From the IMG/VR virus record IMGVR_UViG_3300042876_000418, positions 25,962-89,961 of that record: 64,000 nucleotides of DNA. One strand, 5' to 3'. The stretch's first letter is position 1; each line of letters begins with the position of its first letter. Source of the DNA: a virus. Positions 19,551 through 62,495 of this stretch are shown one piece after another. The position numbers were made by a program, and so were the translations under genes. The notes under the pieces were generated by a model. The model had not been told where the DNA came from. It worked only from the letters and a program-made list of their open reading frames with translations, and made no database searches.

Positions 19551-19657
19551 CTTGTACTCCTTATCGAAATAAAAACAGCCACTCCTAAGATTTAGGAGCG
19601 GCTGCCAAAGTCCGCCACGATTGGGATTCCAATCCGGCCTACGATTTCATTATAGCA
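19551..19657 (-). promoter_or_regulatory. late promoter plus conserved leader/attenuator (copy A)
   Basis: TGCTATAAT..TAGGCCGG-hairpin-GGCGGA-CT-TTGGC-terminator-TTTTT-RBS. Confidence 0.75.
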
Positions 19658-19680
19658 CAACTAGCAAAGCCGTTTCATAG

Positions 19681-19695
19681 TGTCAATTTATGACA
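19681..19695 (+). promoter_or_regulatory. putative operator (copy 2)
   Basis: TGTCAATTTATGACA followed by CTGTAAAACG, as at 4696. Confidence 0.5.
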
Positions 19696-19705
19696 CTGTA
19701 AAACG

Positions 19706-58933: not shown

Positions 58934-60709
58934 CTACACCGCCGCTTTCAGGCCGGCAATGAGTTTAGCTACCTGCGATTCAAGCGCCGCCAGTCGGGCG
59001 ATTACTGCGGCTAAATCCGGATCGGTGACGGGCGGCTCAATCGGGGGTTCAATGGGCGGGGTGATAGTAGCGCCCAAGAAGTTGCCCATTGCTGCCTGCG
59101 TGTCATTCCACAAGTTGAGGGATACCGTAACCGAGCCGCCATTCGCATCTGTCAATTGTCCCTTCACTTTGAGGGATTGGTCACTGTACTCGTGCGCCAG
59201 AATGCGCTCAAAGTATAGATCGGGGTAGGATGTGAACTTGAAACTATCGGCGGGCCGAAACTCCCACAGTTCTGACAGCGTTGGAAATTCACGGGTGTTG
59301 GTTTGCGTCCACTCTCCAAGATGCAACCACAGCCATTCTTTCGCGTTGTTGAGCATCATGGTGAAGTCATTCTGGTACAACCATAGCCACCACGGGCCGG
59401 TATACAGGATGATGGGGACATTCGGGATGTAGCCACGTAGCATCAGCCAGCGTAGCGGGTTGGCTGTGTGATTGAAGCTCAGGGTTTGCCAGAAGTCATT
59501 GACTGGCTGGTCTTTGAATCCGATTGTTTTAGTCGATCCAATCTCAATCGCCTTGACATCCAACCACTTGAGAGTTTTGGCAAAGAGGCCATCCATACTG
59601 AAATTACCGTCACACCAGGACGATAACAAACCAGGAAGGGCAAGGTTCTGGCGGACGGAATCCTGCTTTTGCGCTTCATCGAAATTGCCAGGGCACGATT
59701 GAAACTCAATCGGTTCCTTACCGAATTGCTCAATACCCCATCTTCCCCCATGAATATTGAAACGCCCAATCACAGGGATACCAGCGGTTGCCAGTTGCTT
59801 GAAGCGGCCTTTGAAGGTTGGATCACTGTAAACCGGCATGTGCTTGTGTCCGGCGTCCCATTCATCATAACCGCCCATGCGAAGAATAACGGCATTCGCG
59901 CCCAATTCGGTGGGGGCGACTTTTAGCGCCTGGTCACTACGCCAGGTAAACAGAGTCGCGCGATCCGCCTGCTTGACGGTTGTCTTGTAAAGTAAAGTTG
60001 CCATAGGAGTTGTTACCTTCTTTCCAAAGAATTCAATCATTTGATCCTGGGTACCATTGTAACTGTCCAGGTCCACAGGCCCGGCGATTCCGTCTTGCCG
60101 CCCGGTACCGCCCTCGTACTGCCAAACCTTCCATGTAGTCCAGTCTTTCGGCATACGGATGTCGCTGGAATAGTTTGTCCAGGACGCCACCCATAACCAG
60201 TAATGGGACCAATTGGGTAAGGTGTAGTCGATACCCTTGTAGTTTACTTTGGCCCCGGATCGTCTCACCCATTCATCCCAGTAGTTTTGTCTGGTATATA
60301 TTCCGGGCGTGATTCCCGTCGCCTTCTCAACCGCGGATAGCCACTGCATCAACCAAACGGAATGAATCTCGGGTGAGGGGGGCAAGATGTTGATCTTTGT
60401 TCCATTTGCGTCGGTATACGCGATGTTCTCAACGTCAAGCGAGATTACTTTAGGCTTGACTGCCAGGCCGTTGTAGATTCTTAGGAATTCAGTGATTTGA
60501 ACTTCCGGGCCTAAGTTGGGCTGGAAGAAAAAATAAATTCCCACGGGCACGCCTGCTGCCAGCGCATTTGCGTAGTGCTCCTGAAAGCGCCCGTCCTCGA
60601 AATTAGACTGTCCACAGCGGACGATGATTCCGACTCCTAACTCCGCCAGTCGGGGCCAATCTATCACAGGTTGATATTCTGAAATGTCACAAATTTTAGG
60701 ATAGGTCAT
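58934..60709 (-). CDS. GH25 muramidase endolysin with a second domain
   Basis: CDISEYQ, GIYFF, LDVE, WQYE, VDLD. Confidence 0.85.
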   Translation of the reverse strand: MTYPKICDISEYQPVIDWPRLAELGVGIIVRCGQSNFEDGRFQEHYANALAAGVPVGIYFFFQPNLGPEVQITEFLRIYNGLAVKPKVISLDVENIAYTDANGTKINILPPSPEIHSVWLMQWLSAVEKATGITPGIYTRQNYWDEWVRRSGAKVNYKGIDYTLPNWSHYWLWVASWTNYSSDIRMPKDWTTWKVWQYEGGTGRQDGIAGPVDLDSYNGTQDQMIEFFGKKVTTPMATLLYKTTVKQADRATLFTWRSDQALKVAPTELGANAVILRMGGYDEWDAGHKHMPVYSDPTFKGRFKQLATAGIPVIGRFNIHGGRWGIEQFGKEPIEFQSCPGNFDEAQKQDSVRQNLALPGLLSSWCDGNFSMDGLFAKTLKWLDVKAIEIGSTKTIGFKDQPVNDFWQTLSFNHTANPLRWLMLRGYIPNVPIILYTGPWWLWLYQNDFTMMLNNAKEWLWLHLGEWTQTNTREFPTLSELWEFRPADSFKFTSYPDLYFERILAHEYSDQSLKVKGQLTDANGGSVTVSLNLWNDTQAAMGNFLGATITPPIEPPIEPPVTDPDLAAVIARLAALESQVAKLIAGLKAAV

Positions 60710-60720
60710 ATTTTTCCTGT

Positions 60721-62409
60721 TTATTTTGCCGAAAGTTGTCTTGATCCTGGCGTGTCTTTCTGGTAATGGACGCCGTAAGTCAACACGACCACGTCACCAG
60801 CATTGCCGCCAGTCCTTGATATTGTACAGGCAAGTTGCGCGCCTAATTCGGCTGCACCCGCGAATCCAGTCGAATCGTAGATATCGAGCTTGTACCCACC
60901 TACGGCGCTGGCAAGTTGAACGCTTGTCGCGGATAATGGAACGCTGCCGCTCGTTATTCCGGTAGACTGACGTAACTCCCAATAAAAGGTAAATGTCACC
61001 CCGGTCGTGCCCGCGGATTCGCCAGCCTTCAGAAAAAAGTGGGTGTGTGGGTACACCGTAACCGAAAGTTTTGCATGGTGCGGTATTTCTTGTACGCCGC
61101 CGCAAAACTGATTATTGGCGCTCGTAAACTCACGATGCACACAGCTATTGATAATGACGAAATCAGGCTGAGACGCCGCAGGCCCACCCGAACGAGCAAC
61201 ATCAAAATTCAAATCTTCGTAGACTGGCGTATCGTATACAAGAGTTTTGGCCGCGCCGGTTGCAACGTGCAAATCACTTGCCGCAATAAGGTTAGTTTTG
61301 ATCTCCCCCTTCGTGCCGTCATATCCAATCGACATATCCTGGCCGGCTCCGAATTGAACCGTTTTATTGTCAGCGTCGATGATGATATTCTCGTTTGTGG
61401 TCAGATCGCCTGTCAATGGGTCGTTGGTAGCGTCAAGGCGTAAATATACGCTATCCAATACGGTTGACAGCGGCCCCTCTACCCACGCCCCGTTATCCGC
61501 GTAGATCCCGTTCCCATCTGTAGTTGGTCGGGGTGTGTGCCTGACAAGCGCCGCGTCCCGGATGTCCTCAGCGTGCTCAGTATCGTGCGCCGCAGTGGTC
61601 AAGAATCCGGCACTCATACCTATGAACGCCCAATAATCCGAGTTCTTTTGCACATCGCGCTGGTCCCAGGTCGTGCCGTCGTAAATTTCAAGATCGACAT
61701 AGGCGTCCTGAGTAATAACCCCGGTCACGTTTGAATTTATAAGTTGTACGAGCAGGGTACCCGCAGTCTTGACACTCTCAACCGCGTATCCCTCGGCTTG
61801 GATTACGGACTGATCAATAATAACCGTTACCGTATCCGCACCATCTGGCACATAGATACTCGTGCCACCAGTAGCAAATGCACAATGTTTTCCTGTGAAG
61901 GTTGATCCATTGCCAACAGTAACCGGGCCAACTACATAGCAGTTTTCTATCGTAAATCTGCACCCATCCCATACATTGAACCGCCCTACCAGCGTGCAGT
62001 GGTAAATAAGATAGTTAGTATCGGATTGCGCGCCCGGTAGAGATCCGGAAATACGGACGTTTTTATCAACTTCAATTTCCGTACCCACAATCACAACGGG
62101 CGGGATTGTGATTACCGCGTCAAGCGCAGGATCAAAGGCCCCGATTGCAGAGGTCAATCCGGCCCAGGTGGGCGCGTATTGGGATGGTGTTGAGGCGTTA
62201 CGGTGATAGATAAGAATAGATTGAACCGTGCCCCCACCACCGGGTGACCATATCCACGTAGAGGCAAGATCATCGTAATACCCGTACTCGCCCGTGTCCG
62301 TAGCGAAGGCCAGCATAGTTGACATAGGACTGACAATCGCCTCAATATTAGCTTTGAGGTCCTTGTATACGGGGGATGGAATGCCGAGCGGGTCGTTACG
62401 TCCTGTCAT
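60721..62409 (-). CDS. putative fibre/spike or other virion protein
   Basis: Beta-helix-like middle; YLRLDATNDPLTGDL linker. Confidence 0.6.
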   Translation of the reverse strand: MTGRNDPLGIPSPVYKDLKANIEAIVSPMSTMLAFATDTGEYGYYDDLASTWIWSPGGGGTVQSILIYHRNASTPSQYAPTWAGLTSAIGAFDPALDAVITIPPVVIVGTEIEVDKNVRISGSLPGAQSDTNYLIYHCTLVGRFNVWDGCRFTIENCYVVGPVTVGNGSTFTGKHCAFATGGTSIYVPDGADTVTVIIDQSVIQAEGYAVESVKTAGTLLVQLINSNVTGVITQDAYVDLEIYDGTTWDQRDVQKNSDYWAFIGMSAGFLTTAAHDTEHAEDIRDAALVRHTPRPTTDGNGIYADNGAWVEGPLSTVLDSVYLRLDATNDPLTGDLTTNENIIIDADNKTVQFGAGQDMSIGYDGTKGEIKTNLIAASDLHVATGAAKTLVYDTPVYEDLNFDVARSGGPAASQPDFVIINSCVHREFTSANNQFCGGVQEIPHHAKLSVTVYPHTHFFLKAGESAGTTGVTFTFYWELRQSTGITSGSVPLSATSVQLASAVGGYKLDIYDSTGFAGAAELGAQLACTISRTGGNAGDVVVLTYGVHYQKDTPGSRQLSAK

Positions 62410-62495
62410 GAGTTCTCCATAAAAAATTGGCTACCATACGCGGTAGCCAATCTCCGCCCATCCATCGAATTTGGACCGGCGTTTACATTATAGCA
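62410..62495 (-). promoter_or_regulatory. late promoter plus conserved leader/attenuator (copy D)
   Basis: TGCTATAAT..GCCGG-TCCA/TGGA-GGCGGA-GA-TTGGCTACC/GGTAGCCAA-TTTTTT. Confidence 0.75.

Follow-up and report, generated by a model that had tools for sequence, protein, structure and literature searches.

Putative late promoters followed by leader terminators and a conserved box in an uncultured soil phage and its relatives

A 64,000-nt stretch of viral DNA (the window; bases 25962-89961 of IMG/VR virus record IMGVR_UViG_3300042876_000418, which comprises 89,961 b and is estimated to be 90% complete) carries five copies of a promoter-leader-terminator element, designated E1 to E5, all read on the minus strand. 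The source is an uncultured soil phage, and by its gene content a tailed one that is far from those in culture. In every copy the extended -10 promoter sequence TGCTATAAT is followed by a small 5' hairpin, the tetranucleotide CGGA and a terminator hairpin, and in E1 to E4 by a ribosome binding site (RBS) and a gene; this order of promoter, leader, terminator, RBS and gene is non-random. We propose that the elements are late promoters gated by terminators, which would be read through by means of a factor recognizing a short sequence beside the terminator stem (box 2, which begins with CGGA). We favor this reading tentatively and give it a little less than an even chance; regulated antitermination of any kind, including a general form like that of the gp39 protein discussed below, we consider somewhat probable. 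A preliminary description of this DNA had placed four elements at the positions of E1 to E4, all of which were confirmed; the fifth copy, E5, had been missed.

TGCTATAAT is a consensus extended -10 sequence. With sigma-70-type holoenzymes, a promoter of this consensus needs no activator. Its five occurrences in the window are also the only ones in the whole record, all on the minus strand, against an expected count of 0.20 in 89,961 b, and none of 100 shuffled sequences reached five; the repeated promoter motif of the preliminary description was therefore borne out. By reading, no convincing -35 hexamer was present at any of the five copies, and no common motif was seen in the 50-60 nt 5' to the -10 sequences; only E1 and E2 have a common 14-mer nearby, in opposite orientations. 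A second promoter class, near-consensus TTGACA-16/17-TATAAT, is found before plus-strand genes.

The -10 sequence is followed by an AT-rich discriminator of 6 nt. A first short sequence, box 1, reads GCCGG in four of the five copies and GCCC in E5. The 5' hairpin has a stem of 4-6 bp, loops of 4, 4, 5 and 7 nt, and a sequence that is unrelated from copy to copy; its presence in three copies, as originally claimed, holds for E1, E3 and E4. The CGGA of box 2 is invariant (5/5), and the longer pattern CGGA-N1-2-TTGRC is found in four of the five, so that the boxes do persist while the hairpin sequences change. In E1 to E4, 3-7 nt separate CGGA from the terminator stem behind it, and in E5 the two abut directly; in E1, E3 and E4 box 2 supplies the first three bases of the stem. 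The distance from the end of the -10 sequence to the end of CGGA is 38, 35, 32 and 34 nt in E1 to E4, respectively, and 39 nt in E5 (determined by hand). Over the whole genome the box 2 pattern has 8 matches compared with 2.8 expected; half of these are inside the elements, and the other four are coding or elsewhere, the two that were examined being coding.

The E1 promoter occupies window positions 19649-19657 and has a predicted start at ~19642. Its 5' leader domain (19615-19642) contains box 1 (19634-19638) and a 6-bp hairpin, GAUUGG/CCAAUC; box 2, CGGACTTTGGC (19604-19614), provides the GGC that opens the terminator stem, and the terminator (19565-19606) is followed by TTTTTATTT, the RBS AAGGAG and the ATG at 19550 of a 515-aa gene. 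In E2 (promoter 21102-21110, predicted start ~21095) the leader domain (21071-21095) has a 4-bp CCGG/CCGG hairpin together with box 1 (21078-21082), and box 2, CGGAATTGAC (21061-21070), is one base shorter and of the TTGAC variant; the terminator (21034-21060) leads through TTTTTTGTT and the RBS GGAGG to the ATG at 21025 of the 439-aa gene. E3 has its promoter at 50296-50304 (predicted start ~50289), a leader domain at 50268-50289 with box 1 (50283-50287) and a 5-bp hairpin GGUGA/UCACC, box 2 CGGATATTGGC at 50257-50267, and a terminator at 50223-50259 followed by TTTTTTGTT, the RBS AGGAG and the ATG at 50209 of a ferritin-like 173-aa gene. The E4 promoter (62487-62495, predicted start ~62480) begins 8 nt after the stop codon of an integrase-like gene; its leader domain (62457-62480) holds box 1 (62476-62480) and a 5-bp hairpin, and is followed by box 2 CGGAGATTGGC (62446-62456), a terminator (62419-62449) with TTTTTTAT, the RBS GGAG and the ATG at 62409 of a 562-aa gene. 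The fifth copy, E5 (31961-32039), consists of TGCTATAAT (32031-32039), a hairpin, CGGA (31992-31995) and a terminator-type hairpin with an 8-bp GC stem (31970-31991) and the weak tail TTTGCTATT. Behind it there is only a 36-aa open reading frame (ORF) and no clear gene; its direction is antisense to a plus-strand operon, which it enters as far as the stop codon of a 76-aa ORF (31735-31965).

The terminator stems of E1 to E4 have predicted stabilities of -21.0, -12.2, -19.0 and -14.1 kcal/mol, and each is followed by T5-6, as in canonical intrinsic terminators. They end 12-20 nt before the ATG, with 17-25 nt between the first T of the U-tract and the ATG. This gap is too short for a promoter to fit downstream of the terminators, and all transcription of these gene blocks must therefore pass a strong terminator. 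The predicted short RNAs are ~59-74 nt long, assuming a start 7 nt after the -10 sequence, and folding of the whole leaders gave z-scores of -6.6, -1.6, -3.1, -5.8 and -3.8 for E1 to E5. Pairing of the 5'-terminal GCC(G/A) with the UGGC of box 2 is possible, and in the minimum-energy folds of E1, E3 and E4 box 1 pairs with the bases just before CGGA. The preliminary description had seen in the GCC:GGC pairing of three copies an antiterminator. The pairing can form in E1, E3 and E4, but this helix, like the alternative one involving box 1, is no longer than 3-4 bp, the terminators have -12 to -21 kcal/mol, and it thus cannot compete with them without help.

Similar sequences were sought in other phages. 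The 439-aa protein encoded behind E2 has 443 homologues, the best of which (76% identity) is on a Logan contig; an alignment of 29 of them provided 52 IMG/VR loci for comparison. At a few of these loci a -10-like hexamer and a hairpin or terminator are inserted at the junction between the 439-aa and 515-aa gene homologues, and locus L138 has a small hairpin there. The closest relative whose sequence was compared, G004, has a genome of 79,569 b, complete with terminal repeats, which is syntenic with that of our phage and encodes core proteins 27-62% (~50%) identical to those of the latter. G004 has eight TGYTATAAT sites, two of which belong to orthologues of the elements. G4a, before the 515-aa gene homologue (the E1 position), has TGCTATAAT and GCCAG, a hairpin of unrelated sequence, then CGGAGATTGGC and a terminator, likewise unrelated, with T5. 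G4b occupies the E3 position, where the 184-aa and 433-aa gene homologues meet, and comprises TGCTATAAT, a long hairpin, GCGGGACTTAGC and a terminator. The box at the orthologous junctions of G004 is CGGAGATTGGC or CGGGACTTAGC. A run of 16 nt, CGGAGATTGGCTACCG, is identical between G4a and the non-orthologous E4; outside the box, the leaders of G4a and G4b cannot be aligned with those of the E elements. The minimum-energy fold of G4a is the 5'-GCC(G/A):UGGC pairing, in which a G·U pair of our phage (G000) is replaced by A-U.

A loose motif scan of viral contigs returned at least 113 stretches, with box 2 in none among the matches listed, and stricter patterns found 8 genome-contig and 6 viral-contig stretches, none with the terminator. 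When box 1 was omitted from the pattern, 8 viral and 3 genome stretches were obtained, of which only G004 was real besides the phage's own record. Searches of viral contigs with the 439-aa and 173-aa proteins singly found no relatives, and the 562-aa protein found four loci that match its C-terminal part only and have no element there. A metagenome scan yielded one locus, L199, with a promoter and leader hairpins, a weak U tract and no box.

The whole records of 15 relatives were then scanned for modules, which were listed where a strong terminator had the start of an ORF of at least 90 aa within 65 nt and the ORF did not extend upstream; these ORFs were then compared with the G000 genes. By reading, such a module has a -10-like hexamer and a short leader ahead of a strong terminator, with a start codon no more than 45 nt away; the hexamer is 20-70 nt before the terminator, and G008 has no clear -10. 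A module precedes the protease-like 433-aa gene in six relatives (G001 5792, G002 14480, G004 38964, G008 4596, G009 24490 and G015 34634), the 515-aa gene in three (G001 13994, G004 27465 and G009 36721) with one more at the 439/515 junction (G002 25917), and the terminase-like gene in two (G001 3019 and G002 11317). In G015 a consensus TTGACA-17-TAGAAT promoter, a 22-nt leader and a terminator of -31 kcal/mol stand before a 936-aa gene. G001, G002 and G009 each have a box of their own just 5' to the terminator, common to 2-3 modules per genome and different between genomes: CAGAGCGA..GAGCGCGGA in G001, AACTGTCG(T/C)TCG in G002, and TGAATAT(A/T)CC(G/A)CCC in G009, compared with CGGA-NN-TTGGC in our phage and G004. 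Within G000 and within G009 the box persists although the terminators vary. Tight junctions, with at most 40 nt from terminator to start, account for 33 of 181 strong terminators in 0.89 Mb of this clade versus 15 of 173 in 1.05 Mb of unrelated phage loci, a crude control in which both counts include some false intragenic hairpins; G010 and G011 have no such junctions. The same three late blocks (terminase, protease/capsid and 515-aa/tail) are, by these predictions, terminator-gated in the more distant relatives also, each with its own box.

From this architecture, its statistics, the predicted folds and the conservation, we infer that the promoters are used, that transcription terminates in the leaders, and that there is a factor with box 2 as its target. 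Terminator-gated late operons that require antitermination had been suggested in the preliminary description; this suggestion is supported in part, by the architecture and its conservation, and the mechanism is put here as a model. The host polymerase with its primary sigma factor would be able to start at the extended -10 sequence without a -35 element. It would meet a strong intrinsic terminator after ~60-75 nt, directly before the RBS, so that the default would be a short leader RNA with the virion blocks off; most transcripts would end at this terminator, 40-60 nt downstream of the promoter. The same terminators would also stop polymerases arriving from the upstream unit. Read-through would need a trans-acting factor, most likely phage-encoded and made earlier. 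In the nascent transcript it would recognize CGGA-N1-2-TTGGC, a box adjoining or overlapping the terminator's 5' arm. It could block closure of the terminator stem, aided by the weak 5'-GCC:GGC pairing, following the logic of BglG at its ribonucleic antiterminator (RAT) or of HutP; alternatively, it could load onto the polymerase at the box, as in the logic of N or Q. Since the gates are kept at orthologous positions before the packaging, head and tail blocks, we argue that read-through would be the controlled step. A box beside the terminator stem is at the site where the RAT/BglG, HutP and ANTAR antiterminators act, and each operon would therefore need its own copy, as is seen. A broader reading, which we regard as possible but doubtful, is that of a clade-wide regulon in which promoter-proximal terminators time the packaging, head and tail blocks, and each phage has its own sequence-specific antiterminator reading a box fused to the 5' arm of the terminator. 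As part of that broader reading, and with the same reserve, box and factor would co-evolve in the manner of nut and N, by a mechanism of the RAT/HutP kind; if so, such a mechanism would be undescribed for phage late genes.

Several observations weigh against a box-reading factor. Transcription starts, stops and read-through are all predictions. RNAalifold applied to a MAFFT alignment gave no convincing covariation (8 pairs, one with a double change), and is uninformative, as the hairpins cannot be aligned. In most of the 52 loci nothing but an RBS stands between the 439-aa and 515-aa homologues, so that the gate is dispensable there, and the other extended -10 promoters of G004 have no leader terminator. 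The modules of G001 and of G002 are alike over their whole length, and recent duplication could explain their common boxes. The 89,961-b record, which lacks ~10 kb of the genome, yielded no candidate factor. A sixth module of the window, E6, has a terminator but no box, and better fits a box-independent mechanism. Finally, the terminators of E1, E3 and E4 also end upstream co-directional units (those of E2, of E4 and of the integrase-like gene, respectively), which alone could explain three of the four terminators.

This last point is the basis of the main ordinary rival, namely that the elements are fixed, unregulated attenuators: leaky insulators that end the upstream unit and pass a set fraction of the transcripts of a very strong promoter. 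The hairpins would then stabilize the 5' end of the read-through mRNA, the 5' hairpin would stabilize the 3' end of the upstream mRNA, and the box would be a processing or stability signal. RNase E prefers RN/WUU, to which the GA-N-WUU part of the box fits. The weak U tract behind the promoter and leader hairpins of L199 and the small hairpin of L138 are in keeping with such attenuators, as are the lack of an element at the 439/515 junction of most relatives and the failure to find a factor in the record. However, E2 and E5 have no clear co-directional upstream unit to terminate, the terminators are strong and canonical, and a promoter placed before an efficient terminator wastes most of its output; moreover, the box has survived a protein divergence of 50%, and other phages retain a box of their own in this position. 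On balance we consider fixed attenuation rather unlikely. Antitermination might also be general and use no cis element, if a small phage protein like gp39 of Thermus phage P23-45 or p7 of Xp10 bound the polymerase, shut off -35-dependent promoters and suppressed intrinsic termination everywhere; the extended -10 class would thereby be switched on and the boxes would serve something else. The two promoter classes, with TTGACA-16/17-TATAAT before the plus-strand genes and extended -10 sequences without -35 before the late blocks, agree with this proposal, as does the promoter-proximal terminator of E6, but the invariant CGGA beside each terminator and its conservation in G004 are left unexplained, and we judge it quite unlikely.

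To a third proposal, that the short terminated RNAs are themselves the product, we assign only a slim chance. The elements would be five small RNAs of ~60-75 nt, in each of which a 5' hairpin precedes a conserved unpaired seed, GGA-NN-UUGGC, and a terminator that ends in a U tail. Such RNAs would act upon targets in the host or the phage, or sequester a GGA-binding protein, and downstream expression would be incidental read-through. The layout is typical of a terminator-ended small RNA, and E5, which has the promoter, both hairpins and CGGA but is followed by no credible gene, stops where a convergent ORF has its stop codon, as an antisense RNA might. Published precedents, cited here and below from abstracts and passages, are the leader RNAs of lambdoid PR' promoters, which act as regulatory RNAs (PMC7547250), and small RNAs derived from 5' untranslated regions (UTRs) by premature termination in phage 201phi2-1 (PMC11512511). 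Against this, four of the five elements immediately precede the RBS of long late operons for which there is no other promoter, the orthologous positions in the clade go with the same genes, and no target was found; small RNAs would also fit within the gate model and need not compete with it. The 5' hairpin and box might, lastly, form a cis-acting antiterminator RNA that modifies its own polymerase with no protein, as do put of HK022 and canT of Tn916, so that transcription begun at TGCTATAAT always passes the terminator and only foreign read-through is stopped. put consists of two stem-loops of ~70 nt; the 5' domain here is only ~25-30 nt, with a variable 4-6-bp hairpin. Polymerases from upstream would also transcribe the element and be modified, giving neither insulation nor temporal control. 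In spite of the position of the element between promoter and terminator, as for put and canT (PMC9378689, PMC11658703), and of the record yielding no protein factor, a cis-acting RNA seems to us highly improbable.

The search for a factor covered the 89,961-b record. The Q families PF06530, PF03589 and PF06323 gave no match at E<=1, and there was no NusG domain, no sigma region 4 and no match to Phage_AlpA (PF05930), CAT_RBD (PF03123) or ANTAR (PF03861). Pfam and PHROGs searches with 50 proteins revealed no regulator beyond one weak match to an XRE-type helix-turn-helix; the family models searched did not include gp39 or p7. The 237-aa protein was considered as a factor and rejected: it co-occurs loosely with the modules, but resembles an enzyme of the glycosyltransferase cluster. 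The ~10 kb absent from the record could hold further elements or a regulator.

The preliminary description had not recognized the motif as nut, put or qut, and this stood. The window gave no Rfam matches at the gathering threshold, and matches below it, in the window and four 3-kb loci, were at chance level (isrK at 21 bits versus 50 in E2, isrD at 19.6 versus 37 next to E3). With up to 3 mismatches boxA has 11 matches, and with up to 2 mismatches the ops 12-mer GGCGGTAGNNTG has 85, none of either being in the leaders; the hairpin loops differ in all copies, and no clear qut feature was seen. Some other explanations of the boxes were discarded. By reading, there was no fitting partner element for box 2 to be part of a sigma-54 promoter or of a further sigma-70 promoter; control by CCGG methylation is contradicted by G004, where box 1 is GCCAG; and the E5 RNA could pair with box 2 over 7 bp at best, in one copy of the leader.

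Detailed knowledge of late-gene antitermination is confined to a few model phages, with lambda-type Q, N, put, gp39 and p7. The lambda-type PR'-tR' arrangement is the precedent for a promoter-proximal terminator before late genes (PMC7547250), and, as here, a strong constitutive promoter runs into an intrinsic terminator before the late genes to give a short leader RNA (6S/StxS). Our phage differs in having five gates rather than one, in the lack of a conserved DNA site upstream of or within the promoter, in the position of the box beside the terminator and not at the promoter, and in that no Q of the lambda, 21 or 82 types was found in the record. Nor was a clear sigma-dependent pause element seen within the first 25 nt, of which +1 to +10 are rich in GCCGG and do not resemble a -10 sequence; in four of seven elements box 2 contains a weak GA-NN-TT (about +27 to +33). 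The BglG/SacY/LicT-RAT, HutP and ANTAR systems resemble the elements in their short RNA element that overlaps or abuts the 5' arm of the terminator, in having a module per operon, so that a regulon is formed, and in default termination. They control bacterial catabolic operons, not phage late genes; no CAT_RBD or ANTAR protein was found in the record, and the box is not RAT-like in sequence or fold, the loops of 4, 4, 5 and 7 nt not being two hexaloops.

AlpA of Pseudomonas aeruginosa is a case of one factor that serves more than one promoter, each with an intrinsic terminator behind it (PMC7969949), and it recognizes a DNA element within the promoter (PMC9371919). Several promoter-terminator pairs are likewise present here, but the promoter is conserved only in its -10 sequence and no Phage_AlpA domain was found. 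In P23-45 the late promoters are of the extended -10 type without a -35 element, as in our phage, and gp39 causes antitermination at intrinsic terminators (PMC3351154); gp39 needs no cis element, whereas here a box lies beside each terminator. The put, pLS20 conAn2 and Tn916 canT elements are RNAs situated between a promoter and the terminators of a mobile element, the terminators serving to insulate against outside transcription (PMC9378689, PMC8191782, PMC11658703). These RNAs are larger, and a mobile element has a single one, which heads a long operon, unlike the ~25-30 nt repeated here before each block. ONT-cappable-seq of phage 201phi2-1 located terminators immediately after promoters before the major capsid gene, with 5'UTR-derived short RNAs, and antitermination was suspected (PMC11512511). 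That is a jumbo phage with its own polymerases, and a conserved box is not among the features in the passages of that report. In the abstracts and passages of the literature consulted, neither this box nor a multi-copy, box-bearing gate in such phages is described, although Tables S2/S4 of PMC11512511 may list comparable terminators.

Promoter-proximal terminators before late genes are thus known from the lambda paradigm; here the gate is multiplied and has a short box that fits none of the model systems named above, and three gene blocks keep this layout in a clade for which metagenomes are the only source. Should a factor read the box, the different box of each phage would make these elements a compact set of orthogonal terminator switches, useful as genetic parts and as a model of RNA-protein co-evolution. 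If there is no factor, strong promoter-proximal terminators would be a constitutive insulating and stabilizing design for phage late mRNAs, which would change how terminators are read in phage annotation.

The E2 unit begins with the 439-aa gene and ends at the E1 terminator. The E1 unit begins with the 515-aa beta-propeller protein and continues through the tail block to a terminator at ~7363; this siphovirus-type block (7.4-19.5 kb) includes a tape-measure-sized 1219-aa protein, Sipho_tail and Sipho_Gp37. For the 515-aa protein Atlas pointed to a beta-propeller of tail type, and for the 439-aa protein, weakly, to head completion. The E4 unit contains the 562-aa gene followed by endolysin-like, terminase-like (with an intein) and portal/MuF-like genes, and ends at the E3 terminator. 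The E3 unit comprises the ferritin/Dps-like 173-aa gene (PF00210), the protease-like 433-aa gene and the capsid-like 488-aa gene, and ends at a bidirectional terminator at ~43374. A virion-module gene had been reported behind each element; by position this applies to E1, E2 and E4, but the first gene of E3 is the ferritin/Dps-like one, with the protease- and capsid-like genes only after it.

The count of four late operons had to be corrected, given the fifth copy, E5, with no clear gene and an antisense direction, and the sixth module, E6 (36012-36145, plus strand), which has a different promoter and no box. E6 consists of TTGATC-17-TGCTATACT, a CCGG/CCGG leader hairpin, a terminator of -23.6 kcal/mol with U8, and the RBS GGAGGG of an 89-aa gene without a Pfam match; the promoter spacer holds an operator-like sequence, TATAGTGTAATACGTG. 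Before the window, at genome positions 5745-5850 and 23728-23800 (both minus strand), there are two units with a promoter, a ~50-nt RNA and a strong terminator, which have no gene close behind and no CGGA box and look like small-RNA genes. A ~150-nt, highly structured RNA (-72 kcal/mol) ending in a GC-rich hairpin follows TGCTATAAT in G004 (L192, ~66800-66972, minus strand), and may be a structured non-coding RNA.

A palindromic site, ACGTTTTACAGTGT or TGTCATAAAT(T/G)GACA, is repeated in the window at 19681-19706 (-), 21139-21152 (+), 4696-4721 (-), 31670-31684 (-) and 50987-51001 (-). It lies just 5' to the E1 promoter and overlaps an early-type promoter beside E2, and a near-identical palindrome, TGTCATAAACTGACA, is found 3' to the G4b terminator in G004 (~38940, L190). 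These sites may be the operator of a regulator.

The genome has a GC content of 52%. A contig of 99,694 b from a rhizosphere run carries the same sequence with no differences, and the 89,961-b record is therefore short of ~10 kb of the genome. This DNA is present in two DNA sequencing runs, both of them possible sources, and in none of the RNA runs listed; the two are identical in sequence to the record, with zero variants, and so provide no natural covariation data. Megablast of 7 kb against phage GenBank records gave no match, PHROG and Pfam matches among the phage proteins are few, and PDB sequence searches with three proteins and profile A1 returned nothing useful. The gene content includes an integrase-like gene, on account of which the phage may be temperate, and TnpB. 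The latter (OrfB_IS605, Cas12f-like TNB; minus strand) lies directly after a plus-strand 60-aa piece of a ParB N-terminal domain (32931-34274).

Two proteins encoded at 52794-58887 (minus strand) have intein features in Pfam: the 895-aa terminase-like protein, whose intein bears a LAGLIDADG endonuclease, and an 1138-aa protein with a Hint/intein domain. The G004 homologue of the former has 561 aa and is thus intein-free. A 973-aa double glycosyltransferase (23332-26253, minus strand) is kept in all 15 relatives compared, at 29-45% identity; it is as regular as the capsid and terminase genes, which is unusual for a phage core gene. It belongs to an operon with the 237-aa gene and a methyltransferase, and the sequence TGATATAAT (27516-27531, minus strand) is only 6 nt 5' to the ATG of the 237-aa gene, for which reason this operon probably starts with a leaderless mRNA.

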